In this document: positions 1 through 64,000 of the stretch, piece by piece
How positions within the stretch are numbered: the first letter of the stretch is position 1
Layout of the letters: each line of letters begins with the position of its first letter
Virus record (IMG/VR): IMGVR_UViG_3300014205_000226
Coordinates: 2,440 to 66,439 of that record
Reading direction: 5' to 3' (one strand)
DNA: 64,000 nucleotides
Source of the DNA: a virus
Taxonomy: Duplodnaviria > Caudoviricetes
The notes under the pieces: generated by a model
What the model saw: only the letters and a program-made list of their open reading frames with translations
Told to the model about the DNA's origin: nothing
Database searches by the model: none
Made by a program: the position numbers and the translations under genes

Positions 1-102
1 TAGGCACGCCAGCGTCGTTCCTTCTGTGGTGTAATTGGAATACCCGTAATCTTCACACACGCAGAACTTGCACTCGGTGCACAGGCGCTCGCCGGTCCTC
101 AC
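1..102 (-). CDS. hypothetical Cys-rich protein, 5' part only (runs off the window)
   Basis: GTG overlaps the stop of the upstream gene (GTGA); reads MRTGERLCTECKFCVCEDYGYSNY with no stop before base 1. Confidence 0.5.
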   Translation of the reverse strand, partial: MRTGERLCTECKFCVCEDYGYSNYTTEGTTLACL

Positions 103-761
103 TTCGCCATCTCCACCGCCGCCAGATAGGCCAGTCCGTCCTCGTAGGGGAGCACGTGGCCCTTCGCTTGATACTCGCTAACTTTGCCGGCTTCTTCCAC
201 CATCAAGGCCGCCCTAGTCTGCCCAACGCCGGCCACCTCCTGAAACCACGGCGCATGCGCGACCATCGGCAGCACCAGTGTGTTGTCTAGTTGCGCAATG
301 CCGCGCAACGCAGCCAACACGGTCAAATAGCAGCGCGGCATATGGTAGGCACTGGTCACGATCAACAACCGGTTCCACCCCTCAACGCGCGCCGTGTACG
401 CCAAATGTGCGGCGGATTCGCGCGTGTTCTTGCTGCCCATGTCGACCAGGATGCGGTCCGGCGAGACGCCTTGCTCGATGAGGTAGGTCTTCAGGTGTTC
501 CGCGTCCACTTGGTACGGTGGATTCTGCAGCCCGCCCGTAATCAAGATCAACGGCGCCGCTTGATTCTTGAATAGTTCCAGTACGGTCGAAGCGCGCACC
601 ATGCCATCACCCGTGAACAGCACAATCACGTCTGAGCGCAGCAGCGGCAGGCCGGTCAGGATGGCTTGGAATTGTTCGCGGGGGGTTGGTTGGTTGCCGT
701 CCGTGCATTCGCAATAGTTCGGCGTGCATTCCGCGTCGGCGTGCTTGCAGTGCGCGCTCAC
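99..761 (-). CDS. YdcF/ElyC-like (DUF218) protein
   Basis: Motifs DVIVLFTG, LILITGG, ILVDMGSKNTRESA, LLIVTSAYHMPR; GTG start at 761 overlaps the stop of 758..1078. Confidence 0.85.
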   Translation of the reverse strand: MSAHCKHADAECTPNYCECTDGNQPTPREQFQAILTGLPLLRSDVIVLFTGDGMVRASTVLELFKNQAAPLILITGGLQNPPYQVDAEHLKTYLIEQGVSPDRILVDMGSKNTRESAAHLAYTARVEGWNRLLIVTSAYHMPRCYLTVLAALRGIAQLDNTLVLPMVAHAPWFQEVAGVGQTRAALMVEEAGKVSEYQAKGHVLPYEDGLAYLAAVEMAK

Positions 762-1078
762 GACATCACCGCGTGCGTAATTGCACCGAACAGCCAGAAC
801 ATAGCAATTGTCATAAACGGCGCGAGAAGTTTCGTCGCTGTTTCCCGCTTGTCCTCTCCGTGATATGTGGCGCTGATGCCCACTATGCCAATAAGTAGGC
901 AAAGCCCGTATGCGTGCGCCATACCAATAGCAGGCGCCCCCAGCGGGATTGCGAACCACACCCACATTTTCAGAGCAACCCATGCGCGGAATAGCGCGAG
1001 CAATGGCACAAGCGCAAGCGCCCCGAGCGCAGTGGAAAGTTTACCTAGCGCTGCATACGCTTCGTCGTTGGCGCTCAT
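758..1078 (-). CDS. small multi-pass membrane protein
   Basis: Three hydrophobic stretches; ATGA coupling to neighbour. Confidence 0.7.
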   Translation of the reverse strand: MSANDEAYAALGKLSTALGALALVPLLALFRAWVALKMWVWFAIPLGAPAIGMAHAYGLCLLIGIVGISATYHGEDKRETATKLLAPFMTIAMFWLFGAITHAVMS

Positions 1079-1395
1079 GACGCGCACCTTTCTTCAAGTT
1101 CGTTCGGCAGGTCTCGCCAACGATCCGCACTCTGCATGAACCCAATCCCTGTGAACAAGAGAAACGCCAAGAACACCCAGAGGTACACCGTTTGCCACCC
1201 ATCAAGTTCGGTACGCGGGAACATAAACGCGAAGTTCGGCAGCGCGAGGAAGCACGCACTGGCGTTCGCCCACGCGCCCCATTTCTTCTTCGTGCACTCC
1301 TTGCGTAGTACCTGCATCAATTCTGGTGTCAATCCCTGATCCCCCATCAACCCCTCACTTTCGTCGTACAGTGCCAGTGCCCACATATTGGACAC
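1075..1395 (-). CDS. small membrane protein
   Basis: Two hydrophobic segments; coupled stop/start. Confidence 0.6.
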   Translation of the reverse strand: MSNMWALALYDESEGLMGDQGLTPELMQVLRKECTKKKWGAWANASACFLALPNFAFMFPRTELDGWQTVYLWVFLAFLLFTGIGFMQSADRWRDLPNELEERCAS

Positions 1396-1514
1396 TGATA
1401 AACTCGAACCTCACAACCCCATTTCTTGGCACATCAATTCGCGAACTCTTGCGCGCGGCGCTTCCGCCAATGCGTGCGCTTGTCGCGGCACATGCGTTGG
1501 ACGTGCCAGTGCAT

Positions 1515-1814
1515 TCACCCGCGCCGGCCCTTGCGCATCGCGTCCGCAAACGCGTTGCCGAACGCGCCCCCTCCGTACATAGCCGATTCGGCGTTGTCGC
1601 GCATGCGCTGTTCGTCTGCTATCCGATTGCGCTCACGGCTCACGGCATACGTTTCATGCACCTTTGCCTTCTCCCGCTCTATCCGCACAACCGCAGCCAC
1701 ATACAGCGCGACCGCCCGACTGACCCGCACCAACGCCTCACCATCGACCCCTTCCGCCTTAAGCGCAATCGCGAGGTCAGCTTTCTCTGCGTCTAATCGG
1801 CTCACCCGCGCCAC
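1515..1814 (-). CDS. hypothetical helical protein
   Basis: 99-aa ORF directly after the NeuB gene, in operon orientation. Confidence 0.55.
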   Translation of the reverse strand: MARVSRLDAEKADLAIALKAEGVDGEALVRVSRAVALYVAAVVRIEREKAKVHETYAVSRERNRIADEQRMRDNAESAMYGGGAFGNAFADAMRKGRRG

Positions 1815-2590
1815 CGTTCCACGTCGCGTGTTCTGGTCACCAGTTCGGCCAGTTGGGTGCAGGTCAGGCTAACGTTCGCTTCCAACTCAGACGGCTCATC
1901 GTCCAACTGCACATGCACTTCCAACAACTTGGCACCGAGCGTCGCGGCCATGACGCACGGTTCGATGCTGGTGCCGTGGTAGGAGAAGCCGTGGTATGGA
2001 TCGTCCCAGCTTTCGTCAGTCGAAGTGAACCGATCATGGCTCAGTGCGAAAGTCTCTTGCGGATACCCCGGCGGACAATACAACCCAACTGATTTCTCGC
2101 TGCCGCGCGAGTAGTAGTGCGGGTTACTGTCAGCGCACGCGCTCACAATCACGGGCTTGCCAGTCGCCTTGCATGCGGTGATCAGATCGGCGTGGTGATT
2201 ATCCAATCGCGCAATCTTGTGCATCGGGGAACCGAGCGCTTCCATCATCGCCAACGATTCAAGTCCGAATACGCTCGCGAACATGGGAATGCCGAGAACG
2301 CGCGCAAACGCGAACATTGGGGCAAACCACTCGCGCGGTGTCATCGCTTTAGAATAGAGCGCATGCATGCTCCACCCAGCCTCCCCCCATTGCGCTGGCG
2401 CTGGTCCATCCCCTCGCAGTGCGACCAGTTCATCCGCTGAATAGCATTGCGTCTTCACAAACGAGGCCCCCGCGTCTTTCGCGGCTGCAATCAGGCGCAA
2501 CGCGTTCTCTAGCTTGCCGTTCGCGTTGTTGGACAGCTCCGCAATCACATGCGTGCGGCCGTCGTCGATGTTGACGCCACAGAGGTTCAT
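1802..2590 (-). CDS. pseI: NeuB-family nonulosonic acid synthase, PseI-like, lacking the C-terminal antifreeze-like domain
   Basis: IAELSNNANGKLENALRLIAAAKDAGASFVKTQ, AMTPREWFAPMFAFARVLG, GFSYHG, LGAKLLEVH; ATG at 2590 overlaps the HNH stop; 262 aa. Confidence 0.85.
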   Translation of the reverse strand: MNLCGVNIDDGRTHVIAELSNNANGKLENALRLIAAAKDAGASFVKTQCYSADELVALRGDGPAPAQWGEAGWSMHALYSKAMTPREWFAPMFAFARVLGIPMFASVFGLESLAMMEALGSPMHKIARLDNHHADLITACKATGKPVIVSACADSNPHYYSRGSEKSVGLYCPPGYPQETFALSHDRFTSTDESWDDPYHGFSYHGTSIEPCVMAATLGAKLLEVHVQLDDEPSELEANVSLTCTQLAELVTRTRDVERWRG

Positions 2591-3033
2591 GCGGCCAACC
2601 TTTCGGCAGATTTTCTCGCGTTGTACGCGCGTTGGCGTGCGTTTATGTATTCGCGGTTCTTTGCATTTGCAACACGCATCCGCTCGCGGTGACACGTTTT
2701 GCACTTGCGCATTCGCCCAGTTGGCTGCTTGGCGTGCGTTGTATTCGTGTCGTCGTACGCATGACCACTAGGGCAGTGCGTGGTACTCGCGTGGTGGTGC
2801 CGGTTCCTTTCTACAGCGTCTTGTTGGTTCTGGCTAGGCGTCCCTATGTACAAGTGTTCGGGGTTGATGCAAGGCGGATTGTCGCAGGTATGGCACGCCT
2901 GCATGCCGTCAGGAATCGGGCCGTGAAACATTTCACAGACCACACGATGGGCAAAGTATTTCTTGCCTTTCGCAGATCCCTGCCCGTAACCCTGTAATGT
3001 TCTACCCCGAGTCCATTCCATACAGTCACTCAC
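2587..3033 (-). CDS. free-standing HNH homing endonuclease
   Basis: HRVV..FHGPIPDGMQACHTCDNPPCINPEHLYIGTPSQN plus C-terminal HCPSGH..CKTC motif. Confidence 0.9.
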   Translation of the reverse strand: MSDCMEWTRGRTLQGYGQGSAKGKKYFAHRVVCEMFHGPIPDGMQACHTCDNPPCINPEHLYIGTPSQNQQDAVERNRHHHASTTHCPSGHAYDDTNTTHAKQPTGRMRKCKTCHRERMRVANAKNREYINARQRAYNARKSAERLAA

Positions 3034-3995
3034 GCCCCCACCATCCGCGCCAACTCATTCGCGCTCATATAGGGCTTCGCATCGCTCGAATACGTGAAAT
3101 ACGGATCAACCAACGACCCACGGGGCGCCTCTACTGTGCCCCATGTGCGTTCGGGTGGTTCGATCACGTAATGAGATCCGCAATCCCATGTGCGGCGCAC
3201 TTCCTCGGGATCAACTAGTTGCTCGTGAAGCTTTTCGTCCTGCCGAATACCCGTAATGCGTTGTGTCGCGCCCGGGGCGATTGCGCGTGCTAACTCGGAC
3301 ATACGCGCCCCCTGCAACTTTGGCAAGAATACTTCGCCACCCCGCATCTGATCGAGGGCGAGCGCCACCAATGACACCGCATCGTCCATTGACATCAAAA
3401 AGCGAGTCATGCGCGGATCGGTTATCGTGACTTCACCACTCGCCGCTTGCTTCCGCCAAAGCGGAATGACACTGCCAGTGCTGTTGGCTACATTGCCATA
3501 TCGTGTCGCACTGAAGCGAGTCTGTGTACCCGCGCTGTACACATTCCACCCGCACCACAAACGCTCAGCAACCAGCTTGCTGGCACCATACAGTGTTGCG
3601 GGTGAGGCCACCTTGTCCGTACTCAAAAAACAAGCACGAGGCACGCCGCTCGCCACGCATGCGCGGGCAACGTTCGCTGTGCCCAGAATGTTGGTCTGTA
3701 TCGCTTCCAGCGGATTATCCGCACAAACCTCGACGCGCTTAAGCGCGGCGCTGTGAACGACTACGTCCACACCCCGGCACGCTTCTGTTAGCCTGTCTTG
3801 GTCGCGCACGTCTCCGAGCACCCAACGCACCCTGGGGTCCATATTCGCGGCGCGCAACTCCGCCTGCTTGGACTCCGACCGGCTGAACGCGACGACCCTG
3901 CGTGCCCCGTTGTCGAGACAATAGCGGACGAACGCTTGGCCAAACGCGCCAGAACTTCCGGTGATTAAGACAGACTGCTGAAAGACAGGGCTCAA
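3030..3995 (-). CDS. pseB: UDP-N-acetylglucosamine 4,6-dehydratase (PseB/FlaA1-like)
   Basis: ITGSSGAFG, FSRSESKQ, GDVRD, HSAALKRV, LSTDK, LYGASKLVAE, RYGNVANSTGSVIP, TDPRMTRF, GIRQDEKLHE; 321 aa; TTG start. Confidence 0.9.
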   Translation of the reverse strand: MSPVFQQSVLITGSSGAFGQAFVRYCLDNGARRVVAFSRSESKQAELRAANMDPRVRWVLGDVRDQDRLTEACRGVDVVVHSAALKRVEVCADNPLEAIQTNILGTANVARACVASGVPRACFLSTDKVASPATLYGASKLVAERLWCGWNVYSAGTQTRFSATRYGNVANSTGSVIPLWRKQAASGEVTITDPRMTRFLMSMDDAVSLVALALDQMRGGEVFLPKLQGARMSELARAIAPGATQRITGIRQDEKLHEQLVDPEEVRRTWDCGSHYVIEPPERTWGTVEAPRGSLVDPYFTYSSDAKPYMSANELARMVGA

Positions 3996-4037: not shown

Positions 4038-4367
4038 CTATGCGGCAATGCGATTCACCTCACAACTAGGCTCACCTATAGACTGTACCCCGCGTGGGGT
4101 ACACATTTTGTGACCCAGTACGTACGAGCCACACCCGGTCGCGTCACGCAGCCGTAATTCAAGCCACTTATTGTCACATAACCACGCGAGTGACCTTCCG
4201 ACCTTATCTGGACTAGCTTTGTAATGCAAAGCGGTCATTCTGACCTTAATGATAATCGGTTCGCAATAGTCTAATCGGTCAAGATTGCCGAGTAGTATGA
4301 CCAGTGCGAGCGGATGCTGTCGCAGCTCGGGCTGTCGAATAACCCAATCGCTCTTGCGCTGACTCAT
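4038..4367 (-). CDS. putative winged-helix DNA-binding protein (possible late regulator)
   Basis: MSQRKSDW...ASPDKVGRSLAWLCDNKWLE...GSYVL pattern; ATGA overlap with rusA. Confidence 0.5.
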   Translation of the reverse strand: MSQRKSDWVIRQPELRQHPLALVILLGNLDRLDYCEPIIIKVRMTALHYKASPDKVGRSLAWLCDNKWLELRLRDATGCGSYVLGHKMCTPRGVQSIGEPSCEVNRIAA

Positions 4368-15158: not shown

Positions 15159-15233
15159 GGCAGGGTAGCTCAGATGGTTAGAGCGCTCGACTCATAATCG
15201 AGAGGTTCGCGGGTTCGATCCCCGCCCCTGCTA
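15159..15233 (+). tRNA. tRNA-Met (CAT), probably elongator type; likely attP core
   Basis: Full cloverleaf GGCAGGG..CTCGA-CTCATAA-TCGAG..GCGGG-TTCGATC-CCCGC-CCCTGCT-A; no CCA; last 3 nt are the integrase stop on the other strand. Confidence 0.9.
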
Positions 15234-30652: not shown

Positions 30653-30729
30653 TGGGGCAGCGAATTGGGCTCGAACCAATGACCTCCGAGGGGTTAGCAC
30701 GGTGCTCTACCAACTGAGCTAAAGCCACC
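30653..30729 (-). ncRNA. degenerate tRNA-like RNA (nominal AAC anticodon, mispaired acceptor stem, ends in CCA)
   Basis: Perfect D arm GCTC-AGTTGGTA-GAGC and T arm ATTGG-TTCGAGC-CCAAT; anticodon loop CTAACCC. Confidence 0.65.
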
Positions 30730-30870: not shown

Positions 30871-30874
30871 GGGC

Positions 30875-54597: not shown

Positions 54598-55761
54598 CTA
54601 CGCCGCCGCCTTGAAATCCGGCAACATCACCTTGCCGTTGGAATCAGACAGCCCCGGCAACCTCTTCAAAAAACTCACCGGCTTATCCCGCAACGCGTTC
54701 GGCAACGTGTCGCCCTTGAAGATGAACCGTTCCGGATCGCGGCGTCGCATCATTTCCATCCACACGGCACTGATGCACAGATCGAACTTAGAGAGCCACA
54801 CGCGCCCGTCAATCTCGCCCTCTACGGTCACCGCACTCGCGCCACTCGCCAACGCGTTGCCGCCGTCTGCGTGCATCTGGGTTGATTCGCGGAGCCATTT
54901 GTCGTACGCGGGCGTCCCCAGGATGGCGCCTGCCGGTCGCTTGCTGGTCACGCGCAGCGCGCAGTCCGCGCCCAGCACCGACACCTTCGACGCGCCCACG
55001 AACCCCGCCATATCCATCGCACGGGTGACTGTGTTCAACCCCGAGCCCGCACGGCAACCGGGCGGGTACAGCGTCAGATACAGCCAGTCCTCATAACTGG
55101 CCGATTGCATCACGCCGTCCTCGTCCGGCCAGCTCACCGCGGGTTTGTCGACACCCACGTAGTTGTGGAACCATCGCAGGCGGCGGTTGCGCCCCTGCAG
55201 CAACGCCGTCAGGTGCGGGTGAATCGTGGTCGCGACCAGGTATTCCACATCCGGCGCCGTCGCCCATTCCGTCAGCATGGCCGGCGTCTGGTCGACCGTG
55301 AACCCGTGCGTGACTTTGATGCCTTTCGCGAGCAGGTACGGCAGCGCCGAATTGCACGCCCACACTTGGTCCGCTTGCTCGCAGACGTGCAGGTAGTCCG
55401 ATAAGCTGGGCCCCGCGCCCGCGATCACGATATGCTGGCCGGTGGCTGAATCCGGACGCACCATGTGGTGCACGTTGGCCGATTCGCAGGCGTCGCGGAA
55501 AGATGCGACGCTCGTCATGGCGGGGGCGGTGGGTTGGTTGGTTGTTAGCGCTTCGTGTAGCGCCACCAGCCCAAAGTACGGCTCCAGCTTTTCGGCGGCG
55601 TTTGGTGCGGCCACCTGCAGCGCATCATGCATCGCCGCTTCCACCGCAAACGCATTGCCGACAATGAAGCTTTCAAAGTGAGCACGGACCGGGTTCTGCA
55701 ATTGGATTGTCGGGCCTTTCTTCCGTTTACTGCGCTGCATCTTGCGGCGGCTGTTGCTCAT
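54598..55761 (-). CDS. Maf-family (DUF115/MAF_flag10) nonulosonate glycosyltransferase-like protein
   Basis: IVIAGAGPSL, VWACNSALPYLLAKGIKVTHGFTVD, YLVATTIHP, GLNTVTRAMDMAGFVGASKVSVLGAD match the Maf core pattern. Confidence 0.8.
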   Translation of the reverse strand: MSNSRRKMQRSKRKKGPTIQLQNPVRAHFESFIVGNAFAVEAAMHDALQVAAPNAAEKLEPYFGLVALHEALTTNQPTAPAMTSVASFRDACESANVHHMVRPDSATGQHIVIAGAGPSLSDYLHVCEQADQVWACNSALPYLLAKGIKVTHGFTVDQTPAMLTEWATAPDVEYLVATTIHPHLTALLQGRNRRLRWFHNYVGVDKPAVSWPDEDGVMQSASYEDWLYLTLYPPGCRAGSGLNTVTRAMDMAGFVGASKVSVLGADCALRVTSKRPAGAILGTPAYDKWLRESTQMHADGGNALASGASAVTVEGEIDGRVWLSKFDLCISAVWMEMMRRRDPERFIFKGDTLPNALRDKPVSFLKRLPGLSDSNGKVMLPDFKAAA

Positions 55762-56337: not shown

Positions 56338-57261
56338 CTATTCATCCTTTTCGCTATAGATCGGCAAGCACCGGCAGTTGTATGTGGAATCGCCGGGCAA
56401 CTCTTCCCCATTGCTGAAATTCGCGTCAAACGGCACCGTCTCGCCGTTCATGGCGTCGTGTTCTTCTCTCACCTTGGAGTCACCAACAGTCCGCCACGAT
56501 TTCACCGCCAAGTGCCGCTTAATAATCCCCGCATCAATCGCCGCACCATAACTCGCGCGGTTCGCTTGCTTGTAACTTTGGAGCGTTGTTGTGCGGGCTA
56601 CCGTATTCGCATGTTGCGCGATCCGTCTGTTGGTGTAACTCTCCACAATCCTATCAATCTTCGCCTGCGTCAGCCCGCCCTTCTCGATCATCTTCACAAA
56701 GCGTTTATCAATGTCATACGAAACCGCTTTCGCCGCATCCCCACTCTCTAACGCCAACCGCAAGTTGCGCACATACGCGACTTGATTGGGCGCAATCCCA
56801 ATCACATCCCGCACCGTACGCGCCACCGCCAACGGCGAACGGCCCGCTTGCAACCCATCGGCAACCGCCACCCTCACCGTCTCGCGCACTTCCTGCTTAA
56901 ACGAGAGGATGCGCTCATCCAGCACCCCAATCGCCTGCATCACGCGCGGCGAGAGCGTGTTGAACGCAATCATCGGCCGCCCTTCCAGCATCGCGCCTTG
57001 GATCTGCTCCCTTGAAAACCGGAACGAGTCGACGGTGGTGTTATACAACCCTTCCCGGAACTCCGCGAACGCTTGGTTGAGCACGTCCTCGGTCAACAGT
57101 TCCGCGATCCGGCCGGACTGAATCAAATCCTCTAGACGCGACAGCGGCATCTGCGTCTGCAGGTACTGCACCGCCCGCAGCCAGCGCGCACGCTGGCCCG
57201 CCTCCATGCGGGCGGTTTTGATCTTGATTAAGCGTAGGAGGCGGCGTTCGGTGGGGGTCAT
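56338..57261 (-). CDS. head morphogenesis protein (Mu gpF / SPP1 gp7-like)
   Basis: RANTVARTT-like ANTVARTT, KSWRTVGDSKVREEHDAMNGETV..FSNG..YNCRC. Confidence 0.88.
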   Translation of the reverse strand: MTPTERRLLRLIKIKTARMEAGQRARWLRAVQYLQTQMPLSRLEDLIQSGRIAELLTEDVLNQAFAEFREGLYNTTVDSFRFSREQIQGAMLEGRPMIAFNTLSPRVMQAIGVLDERILSFKQEVRETVRVAVADGLQAGRSPLAVARTVRDVIGIAPNQVAYVRNLRLALESGDAAKAVSYDIDKRFVKMIEKGGLTQAKIDRIVESYTNRRIAQHANTVARTTTLQSYKQANRASYGAAIDAGIIKRHLAVKSWRTVGDSKVREEHDAMNGETVPFDANFSNGEELPGDSTYNCRCLPIYSEKDE

Positions 57262-57524
57262 AGCGTGCCGATCATATCACGGGAGCGCTCTTCCTCTCGT
57301 TCGTCTTTCACCCGCGCGATACTCGATTCTGTTTTCTCAATCACGCCCCGCACGTCACTAATCAGCACCGTGCAGCGCTGCCCCCAAAGATCCGGGGCAG
57401 TAAATGAATGGGTTTCCATGTACCACAACTCCCGAAACTGTTCCAAGTATTCCACGGGGAACGCCCAGTTGCCAGAGTCCTTGCAGACCAGTACAAAGTG
57501 TGGCTGTTCGTGCGCTAAGCTCAC
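57258..57524 (-). CDS. hypothetical protein
   Basis: Coupled ORF. Confidence 0.6.
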   Translation of the reverse strand: MSLAHEQPHFVLVCKDSGNWAFPVEYLEQFRELWYMETHSFTAPDLWGQRCTVLISDVRGVIEKTESSIARVKDEREEERSRDMIGTL

Positions 57525-58444
57525 TGTGCCGCCCTCACCACCAACGCAGACGGCCGCATGGTGCCGTTGTGGCGAAAGAAAGAAAAGGCGTAATCAGTCG
57601 GCCCGTCCAGCAGTTGGTAGAAGTCGACACGGGCCACGCCCGCTTCACGTGCTGCATCAATCGCGGCTTGCGTTTGTTGCGCTTGTGCATCATCAATGGC
57701 CGCATCACTCATCGCGCCCCATGCCGCTTCAATACCGTAGCGATCCGCGCCCACTTCGGTCAGCCAAAGCGGCATGGTTGGCGGCACCACCGCGCGCAGC
57801 GCCGCCGCCCGCAGCCGCACGCAACGGCCAACGTCCACGCCGTAGCAGTGGAAGGACCATGCGTCCAGCAGGGGTGTTGGATCGATTTGGTTGGCGGCGA
57901 ACCACTGGTAATACTGTTGCGTGAACAACGGCTGGTTGTCGTTACTCGAAAGACCCATGCCAACGAACTTGGCGGTCGGGTCAGCCGCACGCGCCCACGT
58001 CATAGCGAAGTAGACCGCATACGCGTAGTCGTGGCCCGAATAGCCAGCGTGTTCATTCCACTCATTGCCCATTTGCCATACGCGCCCAGGGAACCGCATC
58101 GCCAACGCTGGCATAACCACCCACGGCAACCCTGACGGCACGTTCGCGCTATACGGGAAGAAATCATGCACCACAATCAGCGGTTCAATACCGGCTGCGT
58201 CGAAGGCGGCGAGGCGGGCTGCGAACTGGGCGTCGTACTGTGGGGACGCCTCTTTGGTGTAATAGGTGATGCGCGTGGTGTGCACGCCCACCTGACCCAG
58301 CATCCCAATTTCATCCCCGTAGCCGTGCGTGCCGATGCCAACCGGCATACTGGCAGCGGGCGTAGTGGACAGCAACGGTGCCGTGGTTGGTGTGGCGTCC
58401 GGCGAACAGGCGGCCAACAGCGCGAGCGCAAAGAGGCGTTTCAT
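57521..58444 (-). CDS. lipoprotein glycoside hydrolase (clan GH-A TIM barrel, GH5/GH39-like)
   Basis: Lipobox MKRLFALALLAAC; WQMGNEWN (acid/base), WSFHCY, LWLTEVG (nucleophile). Confidence 0.8.
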   Translation of the reverse strand: MKRLFALALLAACSPDATPTTAPLLSTTPAASMPVGIGTHGYGDEIGMLGQVGVHTTRITYYTKEASPQYDAQFAARLAAFDAAGIEPLIVVHDFFPYSANVPSGLPWVVMPALAMRFPGRVWQMGNEWNEHAGYSGHDYAYAVYFAMTWARAADPTAKFVGMGLSSNDNQPLFTQQYYQWFAANQIDPTPLLDAWSFHCYGVDVGRCVRLRAAALRAVVPPTMPLWLTEVGADRYGIEAAWGAMSDAAIDDAQAQQTQAAIDAAREAGVARVDFYQLLDGPTDYAFSFFRHNGTMRPSALVVRAAQ

Positions 58445-58523
58445 TTTTGTATGAAAGGGTTACCAGAAATGAACCAACAATAGGCAACCAAACGTTGCCC
58501 CATTCAGCGAAGCGAAAGGGCAG

Positions 58524-58727
58524 TCAGCCCCCGTCCGCTTGCAACACTTCCTCCAACACATCCACAATCCGAAAGTCACCCGTCGCGGTCAACGCGTACT
58601 GGAACTTGCCTCTCACCGCAACGTCCTTCCCATTCAACCGCAACACCGGATCGGTCACGGTGTGCGGGTTGCCGCTGTGTGGTGGGACGTCGCCACCGCA
58701 GCAGGGGCCGCCGATGTATTGGCTCAC
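58524..58727 (-). CDS. hypothetical protein
   Basis: GTG overlaps the upstream stop. Confidence 0.5.
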   Translation of the reverse strand: MSQYIGGPCCGGDVPPHSGNPHTVTDPVLRLNGKDVAVRGKFQYALTATGDFRIVDVLEEVLQADGG

Positions 58728-58846
58728 TTTCCCACCAACCGCTTCACCCACCGCAGCGCCTTCCGCCAGTTCTTTTTGACGTAGCTGGTCGCGACATCAA
58801 CCGCCGCGTCTTTCGCGGCGTCTTTGATCGGGTCGGGTTTGGTCAT
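58724..58846 (-). CDS. short amphipathic peptide
   Basis: MTKPDPIKDAAKDAAVDVATSYVKKNWRKALRWVKRLVGK; ATGA coupling. Confidence 0.5.
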   Translation of the reverse strand: MTKPDPIKDAAKDAAVDVATSYVKKNWRKALRWVKRLVGK

Positions 58847-59319
58847 GGTTTCTCCAATGTTTGCACGAGTCGGTTCACATACCATTGCGCCTTCTTTGCG
58901 TCTTGCAATGTATCGTCTTTCTTGCCCGCGCGCCACAAGTATTTCACCACTTGCCCGCGACAGTACGCCGCGAATCCGTCAGCGCCCAATGCGCTTTCAA
59001 TCGCATCGATGCATTCCACCGCGCCCGCGGTATAATGCGGCGGGTGGTTCACGGGGTCGGGTTTGTTGACACTGGCGGCGTAGATGCACGGGTGCGGCTC
59101 CCCTCGCATGCCCGGCGTGTTGCAGAGGACGCACAGACTATTCACGGAGTCGGGCGCCGTTGCAATCGGGTTATGCTTCGGCGCATGCTTGCATGTTGAG
59201 TAATGGAACCCCGCGCCGTTGCAGCCATGGCACACGGGCACCGTCGATGTCGTGACACGCGCAACCCGACACGGCGTCGACGCGTCACAGTCGCAGATGG
59301 GGTAGGCGCAGTCGCTCAC
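58843..59319 (-). CDS. DUF3310 protein (T7 gp1.7-related nucleotide kinase-like) with Cys-rich N-terminus
   Basis: DPVNHPPHYT..ECIDAI..YCRGQVVKYLWRAGKK..DAKKAQWY. Confidence 0.85.
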   Translation of the reverse strand: MSDCAYPICDCDASTPCRVARVTTSTVPVCHGCNGAGFHYSTCKHAPKHNPIATAPDSVNSLCVLCNTPGMRGEPHPCIYAASVNKPDPVNHPPHYTAGAVECIDAIESALGADGFAAYCRGQVVKYLWRAGKKDDTLQDAKKAQWYVNRLVQTLEKP

Positions 59320-60875
59320 GCCGCCACCTTCTGCTGCGGTTGCTTGGCAGAAGCGGCCATCTCAAACTGCGCCTCCAATTGCGCCGCTGCTTTCTCTTCT
59401 TCGGCAATCATGGACGCCTCCATCTCCCTTTCAATTCCGGTCAAATCTTCCGACTCATCAATGATCCCGCCCTTCTGCATCGGCACCAATGCCAAGCGCA
59501 CGGGCAACTTCATGTCACGCACCGCACCAGACAACGCCGTCAGCATCTCCGGCGCCATGCTCATATCCGTGTACTCACGGTTGATCGTCAAAGAGCCGCC
59601 ACCGGTCTTGATGCCGCGGAAACGCGCATGGAAGCCGAGCGCACGTTCCGCGCCGTCTTGCAACCCTCGCGCCGTCACGCTCAACTTCGAATCACTCGCC
59701 CCCTTATCAATTTCCTTGCCTTTCGCGGTCTCGGCCGCACGCTTCTGCGGCGCCAACATGGCCAGACTCGCCGTGCCGATATCAGACTTCAAATCGTCCA
59801 GCGCCAGCTTGCACGCGCCCAGCGAGGCGCCGTCGTGGCTAACATAGGCTGCTTTGGCGTCCGGGCTCGTGAACTGGAAGCTCGTATCCGGCCCCAGCAC
59901 CAGCGGCCCTTCACTCTCGCCACCCCCCGACACCGTAAAGATCGGCACGCACGTCTTGTGCATGCTGTTTGCGTAGTCGCTGTACTGCTGGTAGTGCGCA
60001 ATGTTCAGGTATGCGACATCTTCCAGTGTCGGCCGTGACACGAGGCGGCCCACGCGACCGCTGGTCACCACTTCCGCGACCGGGATTTCTACCTGGTTCC
60101 GGAACACCCCGTTACTCATGATCTGCACGGTGTTCTCTTTCGTGATCATTTCCACACGCCACGTCACCACGCCGCCTTCGTTGGCCAGCACGCGGTATAC
60201 GGTCTGTTCTTTCTCGCCATAGACGCCTTCGGGCACCATGGTCGTTTCGCGGATCACCAACTGCGTCAGGATCGTTTGCCCGTTCTCGTTCGATTCGCGG
60301 AAGCTGACGATCTGCCCCTTCCGGATCGGCACCCAATACGGACGCATGCCATACGCTTGCTCTTCACCGCGCGTCGGCACCAGCCCGCCGGTATCCGCGT
60401 AATCCACCAGAATCAACGCGTGTCCGTCAATCATCGCGTCCTGCAGCAAGTCGCGGAGAAACACGTCCCCGTGCGTGCCGGCCAAGTCGATGTTCTCCCA
60501 ATCCGTCGCAATCACGCCCGGCACATCTTCGCCCAGCACCGGGTCTTTCCGCATAATGAACCCGACCAGACCTTCAATCGCGGTCCGGAACATGTTGAAA
60601 AAGACGGACCGCTTCAACCGAGCATTGTAATTGATCGGATCTTCGCCCGGTGCTTTCGGCAGGTATTGTGTGGTCTTGTCGTGCAGCGCGAACTGGCCTT
60701 CGAAGCAATCGCGGGCCAACCACATCGCGGCCTCTTGTTTCTCCACCGCGCCGCTTTTCGTGCTCGGCAGGTTCGGCTTGGTCATAGACAGCGAGCCAGC
60801 GCCGCCATTGGTGCGGAGCGGGCCGTTGCCGGGTTCGTTGCCGCCGGGATTGTACTGCAACATGGGTGCGGTCAT
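59316..60875 (-). CDS. portal protein (DUF4055-type)
   Basis: YLPK..Y.ARL.RSVFFN..IEGLVG; DIDLAG-like ENIDLAG; PTLEDVAYLNIAHYQ. Confidence 0.9.
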   Translation of the reverse strand: MTAPMLQYNPGGNEPGNGPLRTNGGAGSLSMTKPNLPSTKSGAVEKQEAAMWLARDCFEGQFALHDKTTQYLPKAPGEDPINYNARLKRSVFFNMFRTAIEGLVGFIMRKDPVLGEDVPGVIATDWENIDLAGTHGDVFLRDLLQDAMIDGHALILVDYADTGGLVPTRGEEQAYGMRPYWVPIRKGQIVSFRESNENGQTILTQLVIRETTMVPEGVYGEKEQTVYRVLANEGGVVTWRVEMITKENTVQIMSNGVFRNQVEIPVAEVVTSGRVGRLVSRPTLEDVAYLNIAHYQQYSDYANSMHKTCVPIFTVSGGGESEGPLVLGPDTSFQFTSPDAKAAYVSHDGASLGACKLALDDLKSDIGTASLAMLAPQKRAAETAKGKEIDKGASDSKLSVTARGLQDGAERALGFHARFRGIKTGGGSLTINREYTDMSMAPEMLTALSGAVRDMKLPVRLALVPMQKGGIIDESEDLTGIEREMEASMIAEEEKAAAQLEAQFEMAASAKQPQQKVAA

Positions 60876-60882
60876 TCATTCC

Positions 60883-62340
60883 TCATTGGTGGTAAGTCCC
60901 CTGTCTCATCGTATGGCGAATTGTGAGCTTCGAATCAGCCCCAGCGGCTGCATCTATTTGGTCATCATGCTTACCATTCGGGAAATCGGCGGCTTCCGCC
61001 CGAAAATCATCGCGCCACTCCCCTGGACATAGCACGACGTTGCCCGCTTCCGCTTTAGATGCAAGCGGTTCCGCACGGTGTATCTTCTTGCCGGTTGGAT
61101 GCTCTGTGTTCACAACAAGCCCGACATTCTGCAGTCTCCGCACCAGCGCAGCCGTCCGTTCTTCGCCTGCGATACCTGCCTCTGTTTCAATCCACCATGT
61201 TAACCGCCCCCTGTACCTCTGCAGATCGTCAATAGCTACTCTCAATAGCTCGACATCGCGTTCGTGAATGCTTTTCCGGAATCGTGTGACATCGACAATG
61301 GCCGTGCGCTGGTCCGCCATACGGCACGCCAACGCACCAGCGGAATAGTCCGGATCATGCCCCTTGCCTTTCGGTTCAGTGCCTGCCAAATCCCAGTAAC
61401 GAACAAGCGAACCCGTCGACGGTATTTCGTCTATCAATTGCCACCATGACCACTTGAACATACCGCCTTCGCGCGGACGCGGGCGCCCTTGCAGCAACGA
61501 TGCAAAGCCATATGCACCTAGCTCTTGGCGCTTTTCTTCAAGCCATTCCGTGCCACGAAGTTCAGGCCAGAGCGGTTCCCCTATCACGCGACCCAGCGCG
61601 TCGTTTTCTTCCGCTTCTGCTGGCAAATCAACAAAGGTCCACCGATCACGCTGCTGGTCCAGCAAACGGCCCGCGGGGTCGTCTTGGTGCCAGCGACTCA
61701 TTGTCATAACCACAACTGTGTGTGGCTCGCATCGGGCCAAGATATCGTTTGTCAACCAATCCCATACCTGGTCGCGCTTAGCCAGAGATTCCGCATCGTC
61801 GCGTGAGCCAATTGGGTCGTCGATAATAATGACATCCGCATTCACGCCAGCCACGCCAGCGCCAGCGCCGACTGCCTGCACGCCACCGCCCGATTGCGTT
61901 TCCCACTCGCCTGCAGCGTTACGGTCTGCGCTCAGCGCAATACCGCGCGAACCTGCGAGCCGCCGAATGTCACGACTGAACTTTTGCGCGCGACGTTCGT
62001 TGTATGAGCAAATCAGAATGCGCGTCTTGTTGTTCATCTCCAAGCGATAGACCGAATACGCAATCGTATTGTGCTCTGTCTTACCGTGGCGGATCGGGAC
62101 TTGAAAGTATACCCGGCGCAGTCCGTTGAACGTCACGTCGTCCAGGTAGCGCTGCATCTCCACAAAGTGCGGCGCCGTCCACTGATACTCGGGGCGTGCA
62201 TCCGTCATCCACTCGCCGAACTGCTTGACGATGGGGCCGGTGCCGGGCACAAAAACACCGCGCTCGCGCAACCGCTTTCGCTTCGCGATAACCGCCAAGG
62301 CGCGTTGGTCGCGGTCGGCGCTATTTCGGGAGAGTATCAA
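60883..62340 (-). CDS. terL: terminase large subunit
   Basis: VPIRHGKTE, IIIDDP, MSRWHQDDPAG, YWDLA, FPNGKHDDQIDA. Confidence 0.93.
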   Translation of the reverse strand: MILSRNSADRDQRALAVIAKRKRLRERGVFVPGTGPIVKQFGEWMTDARPEYQWTAPHFVEMQRYLDDVTFNGLRRVYFQVPIRHGKTEHNTIAYSVYRLEMNNKTRILICSYNERRAQKFSRDIRRLAGSRGIALSADRNAAGEWETQSGGGVQAVGAGAGVAGVNADVIIIDDPIGSRDDAESLAKRDQVWDWLTNDILARCEPHTVVVMTMSRWHQDDPAGRLLDQQRDRWTFVDLPAEAEENDALGRVIGEPLWPELRGTEWLEEKRQELGAYGFASLLQGRPRPREGGMFKWSWWQLIDEIPSTGSLVRYWDLAGTEPKGKGHDPDYSAGALACRMADQRTAIVDVTRFRKSIHERDVELLRVAIDDLQRYRGRLTWWIETEAGIAGEERTAALVRRLQNVGLVVNTEHPTGKKIHRAEPLASKAEAGNVVLCPGEWRDDFRAEAADFPNGKHDDQIDAAAGADSKLTIRHTMRQGTYHQ

Positions 62341-62980
62341 TGCTCCCGCCTTTGGCCAGATGATCCAACTGTTCGTCCGTCAGTTTGTCGTAATCGAGAT
62401 TGATATTGAGCGTCGGCTTGTCGATGCCGACGTGTTTCGCAAGGATCGGGAATACCGCCAGTGGATTGTGCATGACGATTTCGGGGCCGTGCGGCGTGTG
62501 CTTGACACCGGCATACAAAGCGGCGCCTTGTGGCGACAGGTTCCGAGTATCTTTAAAGTGCGCGACCGCGACGCCATTGCCTCGACAGATTTTGCACGCG
62601 GGGTTCGGCGTGCCGTGTGGATCTGCGTTGTCTGACGGCGGAAAGCAATCGGGGCAAGGTACGCGCCGATGTTCCGCCAGTTCGTTGGCATTCGCCATGA
62701 ACAAATCCATCAGGCGCTTGAGTACAATGTCTTGAGTGATTTCCATACGTTTATTACGCGCCTCAATCCCTTCACGAATCGCGGCCTGAATGTGCGGCTT
62801 CGCCAGCAGCTTGCACGCGGATGCGCTCGCCGTTTTCGCGCTGTATCCGGCTGCAATGTACGCGGAAATAGCGTCCAGTTTGTCGTCTGCCAAATAGTGC
62901 TGCACAAACAACTCGTGCCGTGCGCTGTACACATTCGGGCGCGGTCCCATCTTCTTGCGCCGCTCCCCGTAGCGCGCCAT
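62321..62980 (-). CDS. terS: terminase small subunit with zinc-ribbon insertion
   Basis: HELFVQHY..AYIAAGYSAKTA..LLAKP.I..AI; CPDC..CKICRGNG insertion. Confidence 0.85.
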   Translation of the reverse strand: MARYGERRKKMGPRPNVYSARHELFVQHYLADDKLDAISAYIAAGYSAKTASASACKLLAKPHIQAAIREGIEARNKRMEITQDIVLKRLMDLFMANANELAEHRRVPCPDCFPPSDNADPHGTPNPACKICRGNGVAVAHFKDTRNLSPQGAALYAGVKHTPHGPEIVMHNPLAVFPILAKHVGIDKPTLNINLDYDKLTDEQLDHLAKGGSIDTLPK

Positions 62981-63201
62981 CACCTCGCCACCACTTCCAC
63001 CAACGCTTTGCAGCGCGGGCAGGCGCACACGGGGCCGTTGCCGGTGCGGGGGGCGTGGGTAACGACGCGCGCGATGGCCGGTGTGGCGGCCGGCACTTCC
63101 AACAGCTTGCGCGCGCACGCAGGACACCGCACGTCGGCGTAGGCCAGCGTGACGGTGACGGTGAGGCTGACGGTGGCGAGCGCGCGGAAGATGGTGCTCA
63201 A
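62980..63201 (-). CDS. Com-like zinc-finger protein
   Basis: VRCPACARKLL..CPRCKAL. Confidence 0.6.
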   Translation of the reverse strand: MSTIFRALATVSLTVTVTLAYADVRCPACARKLLEVPAATPAIARVVTHAPRTGNGPVCACPRCKALVEVVAR

Positions 63202-64000
63202 GACAACGCCTTCCGCAAAGCGCGCGCGTTGCGTTGTGCTGATTCAAGACAATTCGTCTGCATCTGGAGCAAGCGGGGTTGCAGGGATTCGGCGTTGGGG
63301 CAGTGTCCTACCAATGGCGTCCCAAAAATGGTTTGGTCGAAGACAGGGTGCTTGAACGCCGGTTCCTGATAACTCAACCGCCACGCCCCATACGGCATCT
63401 CGCCGCCATGCTTTACCACGTCGGCTTGCAGCGCCAATGCGCGTTCCGGCGTATCACACGCCATCGCATAGCACCAGTAGTCATGGTGCGAACCAGCGGG
63501 CACAAACTGCGGCTTTACCCATTCACACCCTTGGATTGCTTCACGGTACATTGCCGCACACTCTAACCGGATTTGTTTCAATACGTCGATGTTCGCTAAT
63601 TGTTTCAATCCGAGCGCGGCGGTGCAGTCGTTCATTCGATAGTTGAACCCAACTTGGTAGTGCCTCGTGAAGTCGGGCGCTTTCAATGTCGCGCTATCAA
63701 TGCGCGCCTGTGTGGCGGACATGCGATAGCCCAATGATGAGAACTCGCGCGCTTTGGTCGCTAGTTCTTCTGAATTGGTGAGCAATGCGCCGCCCTCGCC
63801 GGTTGATAGCAGCTTACTGGCCTGAAAACTCAGGCTCGTAAACGCGGCGCTTTTGTTGAAGCGAAACGTCTGCGCGGCGTCGTCGATCACGGCGCTTCCG
63901 CCGATGTCAGTATGCAATCCGTACAACGATACCGGCAACCACGCATCATAGGCGTTCGTGTCGTCGCCCATTGTCCACGTGTCTGGGTCAATATCCACGA
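63198..64000 (-). CDS. DegT/DnrJ/EryC1/StrS sugar aminotransferase (PseC-like), 5' end outside the window
   Basis: VDIDPDTW, PVSLYG, VIDDAAQ, SFQASKLLSTGEGG (PLP lysine), GFNYRMND..AALG. Confidence 0.9.
   Translation of the reverse strand, partial: VDIDPDTWTMGDDTNAYDAWLPVSLYGLHTDIGGSAVIDDAAQTFRFNKSAAFTSLSFQASKLLSTGEGGALLTNSEELATKAREFSSLGYRMSATQARIDSATLKAPDFTRHYQVGFNYRMNDCTAALGLKQLANIDVLKQIRLECAAMYREAIQGCEWVKPQFVPAGSHHDYWCYAMACDTPERALALQADVVKHGGEMPYGAWRLSYQEPAFKHPVFDQTIFGTPLVGHCPNAESLQPRLLQMQTNCLESAQRNARALRKALS

Follow-up and report, generated by a model that had tools for sequence, protein, structure and literature searches.

We describe a complete genome of an uncultured temperate phage carrying genes for a CMP-nonulosonate pathway and for a minimal Maf-type transferase, and consider it somewhat probable that the pathway is late-expressed, is of the pseudaminic-acid type and acts together with the transferase to glycosylate a protein of the phage's own virion. 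The window, i.e. the whole stretch of 64,000 nucleotides that was analysed, comprises bases 2440-66439 of an IMG/VR record of 66,439 bp. A 123-bp repeat is present at both record ends and falls within the aminotransferase gene, showing both window ends to be contiguous on a circular map, and the closed circle comprises 66,316 bp (~66.3 kb). Since the record is circular, the genes at opposite window ends form one cluster. The original prediction had named a dehydratase, a synthase, a DUF218 protein and an aminotransferase, and all four genes are indeed present on the minus strand with matches to PF02719, PF03102, PF02698 and PF01041, respectively. The relevant features are:

3030..3995, minus strand: PseB/FlaA1-type UDP-GlcNAc 4,6-dehydratase (inverting) of 321 aa, heading the sugar cluster (PF02719, TIGR03589, PDB 2gn4)
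2587..3033, minus strand: HNH homing-type endonuclease between pseB and the synthase gene (PF13392, PHROG HNH families)
1802..2590, minus strand: NeuB/PseI-type nonulosonate synthase of 262 aa consisting of the TIM barrel only (ORF 1802-2704, likely start 2590; PF03102, TIGR03586)
758..1395, minus strand: pair of short ORFs, 1075-1395 and 758-1087, predicted to encode membrane proteins (hydrophobic translations)
99..764, minus strand: DUF218/YdcF-family protein (ORF 99-983; the relatives' conserved part starts near 764; PF02698)
63198..64000, minus strand, cut by the window end: DegT-family sugar 4-aminotransferase (PseC/LegC-like), C-terminal 266 codons (PF01041)
record bases 124-334, outside the window, minus strand: N-terminal 71 codons of the aminotransferase (PF01041; whole protein ~337 aa)
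56338..63247, minus strand: packaging/head genes that connect the sugar cluster with the Maf-like gene, in the same order in relatives
62321-63247, minus strand: terS (Terminase_2)
60883-62340, minus strand: terL (Terminase_6N/6C)
59316-60875, minus strand: portal (DUF4055)
56338-57261, minus strand: MuF-like head gene (Phage_Mu_F)
54598..55761, minus strand: minimal Maf-type (MptE-like/DUF115) transferase, 387 aa, between the MuF-like and the scaffold/major capsid genes (PF01973)
53703-54401, minus strand: scaffold (weak Phage_scaffold match)
52516-53661, minus strand: major capsid protein, with the scaffold directly downstream of the Maf-like gene (44% identity to annotated Vibrio siphophage major capsid proteins)

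The 2.4 kb beyond the window contain a KdsB/NeuA/PseF-type cytidylyltransferase, a conserved orphan of 129 aa (u129), a GroES-like gene and the N-terminus of the aminotransferase. DUF218 and u129 both lie between the synthase and the cytidylyltransferase. The cluster follows immediately upon RusA and a small putative regulator, where lambdoid phages have their late genes; scans for promoters and terminators gave nothing above chance. Most cluster genes are joined by start/stop overlaps of 1-13 nt, the final one being that of u64 and the aminotransferase gene, and the longest terS ORF is overlapped by the aminotransferase ORF. The original view of a single translationally coupled run applies to the 4-nt overlaps of PseB/HNH and HNH/NeuB but not to the stretch from NeuB to DUF218, where three short ORFs and a single gap of 119 nt intervene. 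The HNH gene (PF13392, E 3e-14; PHROG HNH families, E 1e-37) is peculiar to the present phage, its relatives having no HNH gene at that site, and the membrane-protein ORFs, with a weak PHROG 'membrane protein' match, are likewise phage-specific without counterpart in relatives and lie outside the conserved module.

The enzymes resemble those of pseudaminic acid synthesis to different degrees. The dehydratase (PF02719, E 5e-79) matches the TIGR03589 PseB model over its full length with 335.6 bits, below the cut-off of 407.75, compared to 203.6 bits for FnlA and 57 bits for LegB, and among solved structures H. pylori FlaA1/PseB (2gn4) comes first with 268 bits, CapE/FnlA reaching ~190 and PglF ~110. 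It retains the STDK and YGxxK motifs (D-K, Y-x3-K) and shows 46-59% identity across all related loci. The synthase (PF03102, E 4e-33) scores 137 bits against TIGR03586 PseI, as PseB under the NCBIfam equivalog cut-off, and as this match ends at position 255 of 327, having started at position 2, the enzyme has no SAF domain; a six-frame search detected none in the whole genome. The synthase-family profile is nearest to C. jejuni PseI (8h2c, 161 bits; NeuB, 83 bits). Both enzymes group with the nonulosonate pathway, as the original prediction had proposed: the dehydratase lies nearest to PseB, with FnlA/CapE next and PglF and LegB far behind, and the synthase lies nearest to PseI, followed by SpsE and NeuB. 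Residues K46, Q48, K125, S150, H205, E224 and H226 are invariant in the synthase, an Asp replaces Glu134 of NeuB and an Arg the adjoining Ser. More than 480 short homologues were found; identity is 39-59% among phages and at most 33% to any cellular synthase (185,579 species searched with a single representative genome apiece, one phage-like MAG contig aside), the nearest cellular ones including SAF-less cyanobacterial synthases. Both pieces of the aminotransferase match PF01041 (63198-64000, E 3.9e-30), the reading frame is continuous across the 123-bp terminal repeat, and the PLP-lysine motif S-x-S-K is invariant. LegC (160 bits) and PseC (158 bits) tie for this enzyme, and its best solved relative is perosamine synthase. 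For the cytidylyltransferase, KdsB models outscore PseF. Judged from their sequences, dehydratase, aminotransferase, synthase and cytidylyltransferase all keep their catalytic motifs. Because of the LegC/PseC tie, 'pseudaminic' stays a best guess for the sugar, whose stereochemistry is inferred.

Two canonical steps have no recognisable gene. The suggestion that PseF, PseG and PseH might lie in the then unseen gap was borne out for a PseF-like cytidylyltransferase only: six-frame searches of the whole genome found neither PseG nor PseH nor any GNAT, and there is no NeuC-type gene in the genome. DUF218 (PF02698, E 1.7e-18; weak match to YdcF 3ca8) is conserved with 31-43% identity in the same slot directly after the synthase gene at all loci covering it, and this conserved position makes it the likeliest candidate to replace PseG, the UDP-sugar hydrolase. 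A search of 79 bacterial nonulosonate loci with a DUF218 HMM recovered no member of this family, and fusions were likewise not found. That the phage builds its own nine-carbon sugar without host donors, as originally proposed, is supported by the phage-encoded pathway genes as to the building but not as to the donors, since UDP-GlcNAc, PEP and CTP still have to come from the host, which may also have to supply an acyltransferase.

A use for the sugar is offered by a Maf-type transferase encoded in the capsid module, which the original prediction had overlooked. The Maf-like protein matches PF01973 with 41.3 bits (cut-off 34.6), as do all family members (52/52). Its AlphaFold2 model (pLDDT 93.5) has Maf 5mu5 as top Foldseek match (E 1.3e-8) and aligns in VIA-align with Maf residues 238-501, the catalytic core of the Magnetospirillum enzyme (Z 16.3, rmsd 3.7 Å, 226 residues), followed by the archaeal pterin kinase MptE (Z 13.3), CMP-sugar sialyltransferases scoring Z 7-10. 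An HMM of the phage Maf family recovered large Maf-like ORFs adjoining nonulosonate synthase genes at six bacterial loci. The protein is presumably a CMP-nonulosonate protein glycosyltransferase, and the major capsid protein, with a Ser and Thr content of 17.6%, is the most likely acceptor. No flagellin was found in a six-frame search of the genome, and a Pfam listing of at most 25 families for another 59 ORFs includes no other glycosyltransferase family and no base-hydroxymethylating enzyme.

Beyond gene identification, we infer a model according to which the PseB-type enzyme would dehydrate UDP-GlcNAc and the DegT enzyme would then aminate the sugar at C4, UDP being removed in a PseG-like step for which DUF218 is the best candidate. 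Condensation of PEP with the free sugar would yield a 5,7-diamino-tetradeoxy-nonulosonate, to be activated to the CMP-sugar, from which the Maf-like enzyme would transfer it, still in the cytoplasm, to Ser/Thr of a virion protein, either ahead of head assembly or while it proceeds. For the N-acylation (PseH), lacking a phage gene, a host enzyme may act, or the 7-amino group may remain free.

The order PseB, SAF-less NeuB, DUF218, u129, cytidylyltransferase, aminotransferase, terminase, portal, MuF, Maf-like, scaffold and capsid is found at 21 IMG/VR loci and in one mis-binned MAG contig, and at least 12 distinct viral contigs from different samples carry sugar genes and Maf together. Capsid relatives of at least 55% identity have Maf and, wherever the contig extends that far, the sugar genes; those of 42-51% identity have neither, and Maf and the sugar genes may occur together because one clade gained them once. 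The Maf-like gene is always accompanied by the sugar genes, and some relatives have a second Maf-like copy just after the capsid gene. As originally assumed, these are phage genes rather than a flanking host locus, given the circular assembly, the PrimPol/RusA replication genes on one side and terS-terL-portal on the other, and the recurrence of this arrangement on the viral contigs.

Virion glycosylation by a pseudaminic-like sugar has to be weighed against other readings. One, concerning the chemistry alone and compatible with virion glycosylation, is that the pathway is real but makes another product, be it a different stereoisomer among the 5,7-diamino nonulosonates (a legionaminic, acinetaminic or 8-epi form), a 7-amino form without acetylation or an ulosonic acid of different chain length, turning 'pseudaminic-like' into a misnomer. 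The dehydratase being plainly of PseB type (336 bits versus 57 for LegB; FlaA1 268 versus PglF 110) and the synthase profile favouring PseI over NeuB speak against it, leaving it a tentative possibility that draws on the LegC/PseC tie and the perosamine synthase structure, the lack of both PseH and PseG, the SAF-less synthase with its Asp and Arg replacements, the KdsB-leaning cytidylyltransferase and the SAF-less cyanobacterial synthases among the nearest cellular ones, such genera falling in the published tree into a group with scattered NeuB and LegI labels and without a concentration of PseI (PMC8208679). We regard it as rather unlikely that the pathway and the Maf-like enzyme serve lysogenic conversion, acting on host flagellin, pilin or S-layer or feeding host glycans, so that changed receptors exclude superinfecting phages or host behaviour is altered, instead of decorating virions. 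The tyrosine integrase adjoining a tRNA-Met marks the phage as temperate, so that lysogens might express the genes and host proteins be acted upon; flagellins are to our knowledge the sole known acceptors of Maf enzymes and the phage has none, which makes a host target conceivable; and prophage enzymes altering capsule pseudaminic acid are known from Acinetobacter (PMC12053666). However, the Maf-like gene is locked between MuF and scaffold/capsid in every relative, with the second post-capsid copy in some, the overlap-chained sugar genes lie directly upstream of terS and away from the integrase/immunity region, and both terminal domains seen in bacterial Maf are missing from the phage protein.

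Placement of the sugar on modified DNA bases rather than proteins appears highly improbable. Diverse sugars on phage DNA are known (bioRxiv 10.1101/2023.12.21.572611) and packaging genes adjoin the cluster, but that report mentions neither a nonulosonate nor a CMP-sugar, and the above listing of at most 25 Pfam families includes no thymidylate-synthase-like hydroxymethylase, TET/JBP or DNA glycosyltransferase family, with nothing but an N6-type methyltransferase turning up; the sole transferase resembles Maf and sialyltransferases and is encoded within the head module. Hardly credible is an artefact, either host sugar genes mis-assembled to a phage or a Maf-like protein that is in fact the pterin diphosphokinase MptE and unrelated to the sugar genes. 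The CheckV completeness figure of 78% and the MptE HPPK as second-best structural match would fit, but the identical order on independent viral contigs, the distance of the phage-type synthase from cellular homologues, the even GC content across the circular join, the lack of further folate/pterin genes among the ORFs scanned and Maf outranking MptE in both structure searches argue against it.

The canonical CMP-pseudaminic acid pathway of H. pylori and C. jejuni comprises PseB-PseC-PseH-PseG-PseI-PseF. The phage shares PseB-, PseC-, PseI- and PseF-like enzymes with catalytic motifs, PseB and PseI being the top-scoring named families, and differs by lacking PseH and PseG, DUF218 and the 129-aa orphan being conserved instead, by its SAF-less synthase, by scores all under equivalog cut-offs and by the PseC/LegC tie. 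Maf-dependent O-glycosylation of flagellin with pseudaminic or legionaminic acid in Campylobacter, Helicobacter and Aeromonas (and Magnetospirillum magneticum Maf, PDB 5mu5) likewise shows genetic linkage of a CMP-nonulosonate pathway to a DUF115/MptE-like transferase. Bacterial Maf has ~630 aa, whereas the phage protein of 387 aa has neither its N- nor its C-terminal domain, and unlike the flagellin systems the phage has no flagellin gene and its transferase gene lies inside the head-assembly block.

In agreement with the original prediction, no system of this kind was found for any phage in the literature searched. Mycobacteriophages Che8 and Rita reportedly rely on conventional GT-A/GT-B glycosyltransferases and on the sugar nucleotides of their host, whereas the present phage encodes an entire sugar-nucleotide pathway for a nine-carbon acidic sugar and a Maf-type transferase. 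The own capsid proteins of Che8 and Rita are modified by phage-encoded transferases in the host cytoplasm (Freeman et al. 2023, Cell Host Microbe, PMC10527164, as relayed in PMC11256854). Apart from these mycobacteriophages, no tailed phage is known to have a well-documented glycan coat. EpaA/EpaB of an Acinetobacter baumannii prophage are likewise phage-borne and act on pseudaminic acid metabolism, but constitute no de novo pathway, and the abstract does not mention a virion-module transferase (PMC12053666). Environmental SAF-less NeuB-family synthases (PMC8208679, whose text does not mention phages or viruses; PDB 6ncs, 290 aa) likewise consist of the TIM-barrel only with catalytic residues kept, and Glu134 is often Asp in them as in the phage family; the phage enzymes, by their mutual identity and their distance to cellular synthases, form a separate family.

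We found that the 66,439-bp IMG/VR record, of which bases 2440-66439 form the window, closes as a circle of 66,316 bp, its first 123 bp being identical to its last 123 bp, and that this terminal repeat falls within the aminotransferase gene, which runs in frame from record base 334 downward through the join into window positions 63998-63198 and comprises about 337 codons in total. All four genes named in the original prediction, i.e. a PseB-type dehydratase, a NeuB-family synthase, a DUF218 gene and a DegT aminotransferase, were confirmed. The sugar cluster and the Maf-like gene are composed as follows (window coordinates unless record bases are stated):

99-983: DUF218 domain (PF02698, E 1.7e-18, 67.2 bits, cut-off 27.6)
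1802-2590: NeuB-family synthase (PF03102, E 4e-33, 115 bits)
2587-3033: HNH endonuclease gene, separating the dehydratase and synthase genes with a 4-nt start/stop overlap on either side
3030-3995: dehydratase (Polysacc_synt_2, E 5e-79)
54598-55761, minus strand: Maf-like gene
63198-64000: C-terminal part of the DegT-family aminotransferase, PLP lysine present
Record bases 1-2439, minus strand, after DUF218 and in this order: 100-aa Cys-rich ORF; u129, a conserved 129-aa orphan ORF; GroES/Cpn10-like gene; possibly a 58-aa ORF; 213-aa cytidylyltransferase (CTP_transf_3, PF02348, E 9e-12); 64-aa ORF; N-terminus of the aminotransferase

The gene content marks the genome as belonging to a tailed, temperate phage. 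Packaging and head functions are represented by terS, terL, a DUF4055 portal, a MuF-like protein, a scaffold and a major capsid protein that shares 44% identity with its Vibrio siphophage counterparts. Further structural and lysis genes code for a head-tail adaptor, a tail terminator, a tail tube, a tail assembly chaperone and a CHAP lysin. Also encoded are PrimPol, RusA, a helicase, repressor-type HTH proteins and a tyrosine integrase adjoining a tRNA-Met gene. The minus strand carries nearly all genes and the GC content is even (57-64%).

The dehydratase matches PseB (TIGR03589) best among the NCBIfam families, with 335.6 bits over the full length, which is below the cut-off of 407.75 (FnlA 203.6, LegB 57), and among solved structures H. 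pylori FlaA1/PseB (2gn4, 268 bits), followed by CapE/FnlA (about 190) and PglF (about 110). Aligned to 2gn4 it retains the STDK and YGxxK motifs, suggesting an inverting UDP-GlcNAc 4,6-dehydratase/5-epimerase of PseB type, i.e. an extended SDR with the D-K and Y-x3-K elements. The synthase reaches 137 bits against the PseI model TIGR03586, below the cut-off of 340, and its family profile is nearest to PseI 8h2c (161 bits). K46, Q48, K125, S150, H205, E224 and H226 do not vary across 28 sequences, pointing to a PEP-condensing enzyme of the NeuB family with the two metal-binding His and the catalytic Lys/Glu of PseI. The protein stops at position 255 of 327 of the PseI model and therefore misses the C-terminal SAF (antifreeze-like) domain of the canonical pathway synthase, which (PF08666) was found nowhere in the genome in six frames at E <= 0.1. 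PseC is the aminotransferase giving UDP-4-amino-4,6-dideoxy-beta-L-AltNAc; the phage aminotransferase scores 160.5 bits with LegC and 157.8 bits with PseC, a tie with cut-offs of about 420, and its best match in the PDB is a perosamine synthase (155 bits; H. pylori PseC 66). The cytidylyltransferase is, by its profile matches, a KdsB/NeuA/PseF-superfamily enzyme: it matches the cytidylyltransferase 6oew, then KdsB and NeuA, and carries the QARxxSTRLPGK loop. Members of its family match the PseF model TIGR03584 weakly (7 of 14) and KdsB subfamily models (14 of 14), and in 58 of 80 loci the family HMM matches a gene located beside a nonulosonate synthase.

PseH is an N-acetyltransferase (GNAT) and PseG a UDP-sugar hydrolase of GT-B fold. 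Together with PseF, both had been suspected to lie in the unseen gap between the window ends or to come from the host; the guess about the gap held for PseF, in that the KdsB/NeuA/PseF-superfamily enzyme is located there, and failed for the other two. Six-frame searches of the whole 66-kb genome at E <= 0.1 revealed neither TIGR03585, PF00583 (GNAT) nor PF00132 (hexapeptide acyltransferase) for PseH, and neither TIGR03590 nor PF02350 (NeuC/LegG-type epimerase) for PseG; the inserts that vary among relatives likewise contained none of the three domains sought for PseH. Compared to the CMP-pseudaminic acid pathway, the phage misses these two defining features.

DUF218 is conserved in the region instead of PseG. 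The protein exceeds the Pfam gathering score as a YdcF/SanA family member (DUF218/YdcF-SanA-ElyC), its Atlas neighbours are DUF218 clusters, it gives a weak profile match to YdcF (3ca8), and comparison with relatives places its likely start near 764. Residues invariant among the phage copies include G53, D54, R58, G78, G79, T115, S139, H142 and R145. To our knowledge no biochemical activity has been assigned to the DUF218/YdcF/SanA family, nor did we find one in the literature searched. As its gene has a fixed place immediately behind that of the synthase, and the pathway has no UDP-sugar hydrolase, DUF218 is, by position only, the best candidate for carrying out the PseG step. HMMs built from the phage proteins found no homologue of DUF218 or u129 in 79 bacterial nonulosonate loci, PF02698 was not found in five small genomes holding NeuB homologues, and searches for longer, fused DUF218 forms gave none, a weak piece of evidence. 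The u129 family comprises 261 homologues, all unnamed and lacking a Pfam domain, and u129 itself matches no Pfam, NCBIfam or PHROG family. Its predicted model is confident (pLDDT 90.5) and gave no match in Foldseek and no usable match in the Atlas; VIA-align matches to FGE/EgtB-C/C-type-lectin-like folds were weak (Z 5-5.8) and are not counted as an assignment.

Between u129 and the cytidylyltransferase gene, the cluster contains a gene for a GroES/Cpn10-like co-chaperonin (record 1336-1710, minus strand), also present in at least two related loci (L019:5074-5373, L025:4724-5050). The T4 GroES analogue gp31 is required for capsid protein folding, and by analogy a link of the phage gene to head assembly is possible. 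An overlapping 196-aa ORF (record 1163-1753, minus strand) was rejected as a gene, since it mostly overprints the GroES-like gene in another frame.

The protein whose gene is flanked by the MuF-like gene on one side and by the scaffold and capsid genes on the other suggests how the sugar might be used. It matches PF01973 (MptE-like/DUF115) with 41.3 bits (gathering score 34.6), as do all members of its family alignment (52/52). The top Foldseek match of its AlphaFold2 model (pLDDT 93.5) is the Magnetospirillum Maf glycosyltransferase 5mu5 (E 1.3e-8), and VIA-align superimposes both over 226 residues (Z 16.3, rmsd 3.7 A), followed by the archaeal pterin kinase MptE (Z 13.3) and CMP-sugar sialyltransferases of families GT29 and GT42 (Z 7-10). 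The modelled structure is thus consistent with the central DUF115/MptE-like catalytic domain of Maf with its sialyltransferase-like fold. PDB sequence searches with the protein or its profile gave no Maf match, the relation being found by fold search only. In IMG/VR a single-protein scan gave no match and an alignment-based scan did. With its flanking domains, Maf has a full length of about 600-650 aa. In contrast to bacterial Maf, the phage protein of 387 aa misses the N- and C-terminal flanking domains and aligns only to residues 238-501, the catalytic core, of the 632-residue 5mu5 chain; representatives of its family mostly have 280-460 aa. There is also no flagellin acceptor (PF00669) in the phage genome. 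In six bacterial loci, the HMM of the phage family detects large Maf-like ORFs that neighbour nonulosonate synthase genes. Capsid proteins of the Maf-bearing clade are slightly richer in Ser/Thr (16.3% compared to 14.9%), to which we give no weight because the sequences are not independent.

Several relatives encode two Maf-like paralogues, arranged in tandem or with one on either side of the scaffold/capsid genes (L111:13952-14767, L122:10185-10898, L124:3640-5654; in L135 the second match follows the capsid gene). These pairs are reminiscent of Campylobacter with its multiple Maf genes and hint at more than one acceptor or sugar. Some relatives have a Cys-rich, zinc-ribbon-like insert (CxCGH...CxxC) in the middle of the catalytic domain, which is absent from the copy in the window (L016:9971-11059, L019:12591-13688, L015:18315-19421).

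The short synthase has more than 480 metagenome homologues, the best 120 listed having 228-297 aa and 46-59% identity, and occurs on 21 IMG/VR loci and on one 39-kb contig from the bin of a Gemmatimonadaceae MAG. The gene order is constant across relatives: dehydratase, synthase, DUF218, u129, cytidylyltransferase, aminotransferase, terminase, portal, MuF, Maf-like, scaffold, capsid. Sugar genes and the Maf-like gene occur together on at least 12 distinct contigs, and no contig was found carrying one and demonstrably missing the other. Capsid-protein relatives of at least 55% identity come with the Maf-like gene; at 42-51% identity, both Maf and the sugar genes are absent within 10 kb upstream, the sole exception being L151, which has Maf. 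The gene pattern thus argues for a genetic linkage of the Maf-like gene to the CMP-nonulosonate pathway, a sister clade being jointly without both. Other synthase homologues are at most 33% identical (one representative genome per species, 185,579 bacterial and archaeal species). Among 50,697 deposited phage records there was no Maf homologue and one distant synthase homologue only, in a 484-kb phage, and PHROGs holds no family for the synthase, cytidylyltransferase, DUF218, u129 or Maf-like protein; the first 8 kb had no megablast match among deposited phages. The family is abundant in metagenomes and nearly absent among deposited phage genomes.

The binned contig (L025; CBHTUR010000039.1, 39,321 bp, "Gemmatimonadaceae" MAG bin) carries the whole module of terS, portal, MuF, Maf and sugar genes and is clearly a phage contig, either mis-binned or a prophage. 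Its binning is a weak hint to a Gemmatimonadaceae host; as the best tRNA-Met match of this MAG to the att-side tRNA of the phage is only 85% identical, no host is assigned. Peculiar to the present phage are the HNH gene, two membrane ORFs, the 100-aa ORF and the 64-aa ORF; inserts of relatives in the same places are a T5orf172/GIY-YIG-like endonuclease, Cpn10, an alternative cytidylyltransferase and weak, sub-threshold sulfotransferase-like ORFs. Homing-type endonucleases thus land in the sugar cluster here and in a relative, in which the T5orf172/GIY-YIG-like gene (L004:5661-6608) lies between the cytidylyltransferase and aminotransferase genes. In two further relatives this position is taken by the sulfotransferase-like ORFs with a P-loop (GCGRSGTH; L019:6064-6546, L013:14216-14797), which score 22 bits with Pfam Sulfotransfer_3, below the cut-off of 27, and may provide a tailoring step.

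Together, the genes make a phage-encoded nonulosonate pathway highly probable, supporting the original interpretation and extending it by the genes of the gap, a Maf-type transferase and the relatives. The sugar cluster begins immediately after RusA and a small putative regulator, and start/stop overlaps chain most of its genes, the last one being between the 64-aa ORF and the aminotransferase, whose ORF also overlaps the longest terS ORF. In lambdoid phages the late operon begins at this position, so the arrangement fits late expression. Building on the observed gene identities, catalytic residues, order, overlaps and Maf linkage, we lean slightly towards a model running from the pathway through to virion glycosylation, according to which, late in infection, UDP-GlcNAc would be converted by the PseB-type dehydratase and then the 4-aminotransferase, UDP would be released from the sugar with DUF218 as possible agent, the free sugar would be condensed with PEP by the synthase, the product would be activated with CTP, and the minimal Maf would attach it to Ser/Thr of a virion protein. 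No phage gene accounts for the N-acylation, which may fall to a host enzyme or be left out, the 7-amino group then staying free.

The main rival to virion glycosylation is an action on host proteins in lysogens, which the temperate lifestyle and flagellin being the sole known Maf acceptor would favour; the fixed position of the Maf-like gene in the head module argues against it. A use of the sugar for DNA glycosylation is unlikely, because neither a base-hydroxymethylating enzyme nor a DNA glycosyltransferase was among the families listed in the Pfam scan of 59 further ORFs, and a mis-assembled sugar cluster is in practice excluded by the recurrence of the gene set on independent contigs. As to the product, Pse5Ac7Ac has the L-glycero-L-manno configuration, and the phage enzymes may instead make another stereoisomer or a non-acetylated form, consistent with the aminotransferase tying between LegC and PseC (160 and 158 bits).

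Nonulosonic acids are sugars known from the surface of animal cells and, in bacteria, from flagella, capsules and LPS. Glycosylation of phage particles is documented mainly in mycobacteriophages, using ordinary glycosyltransferases and host sugar donors. We liken the phage system, known on its side from genes and a model, to the Maf-dependent glycosylation of flagellin with sugar supplied by the CMP-pseudaminic acid pathway, and classify it on this basis as a putative streamlined form of bacterial nonulosonate-plus-Maf protein glycosylation, relocated to the late operon and head module of a phage. The documented phage precedent is the virion glycosylation of mycobacteriophages (Freeman et al. 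2023, as represented via PMC11256854); in contrast to this type, with GT-A/GT-B enzymes and host sugar nucleotides, no glycosyltransferase family was among the matches listed (at most 25 families) in the Pfam scan of 59 further ORFs of the present phage. SAF-less synthases occur in environmental bacteria according to a large-scale study, which does not mention phages or viruses (PMC8208679). In the literature searched, we found no description of a phage with a nonulosonate pathway plus Maf; one review contains pseI only as the abbreviation of a viral auxiliary gene.

A tentative joint reading, to which we give somewhat less than even chances, is that a widespread, uncultured lineage of temperate siphophages builds its own capsid coat of a negatively charged or zwitterionic pseudaminic-type sugar. 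The minimal Maf would recognise a capsid protein and not flagellin, DUF218 would replace PseG, a UDP-sugar hydrolase activity being the long-sought function of its family, and u129 would be a new pathway or targeting component. The SAF-less synthase would act without N7-acetylation, so that the product would be Pse5Ac7N. If true, virions can bear sialic-acid-like coats, which bears on phage adsorption, aggregation, grazing, stability and immune recognition. A minimal, flagellin-independent Maf would then allow learning about acceptor choice of these poorly understood transferases, DUF218, a very large family for which no chemistry is known, would gain a concrete, testable role, and compact enzyme sets would become available for pseudaminic-type sugars, which are hard to synthesise.

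Promoter and terminator scans stayed at chance level, and Rfam gave no match in the gap region. CheckV estimates the completeness of the whole record at 78%, even though the record has terminal repeats and its genes for replication, lysogeny, packaging, head, tail and lysis form a full set; missing close reference genomes have probably affected the estimate. ARAGORN places the tRNA-Met gene at 15159-15233, immediately adjacent to the integrase gene, and another six tRNA genes at 30653-31794, i.e. Val at 30653-30728 and a tight array of Tyr, three Leu and Ile at 31367-31794. The ORF at window 4038-4628 (minus strand) is credible only from an internal Met onwards (about 109 aa), a part with a conserved counterpart upstream of pseB in L025. 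In this GC-rich genome, the ORFs at record 1163-1753 and window 4038-4628 probably represent much shorter genes.
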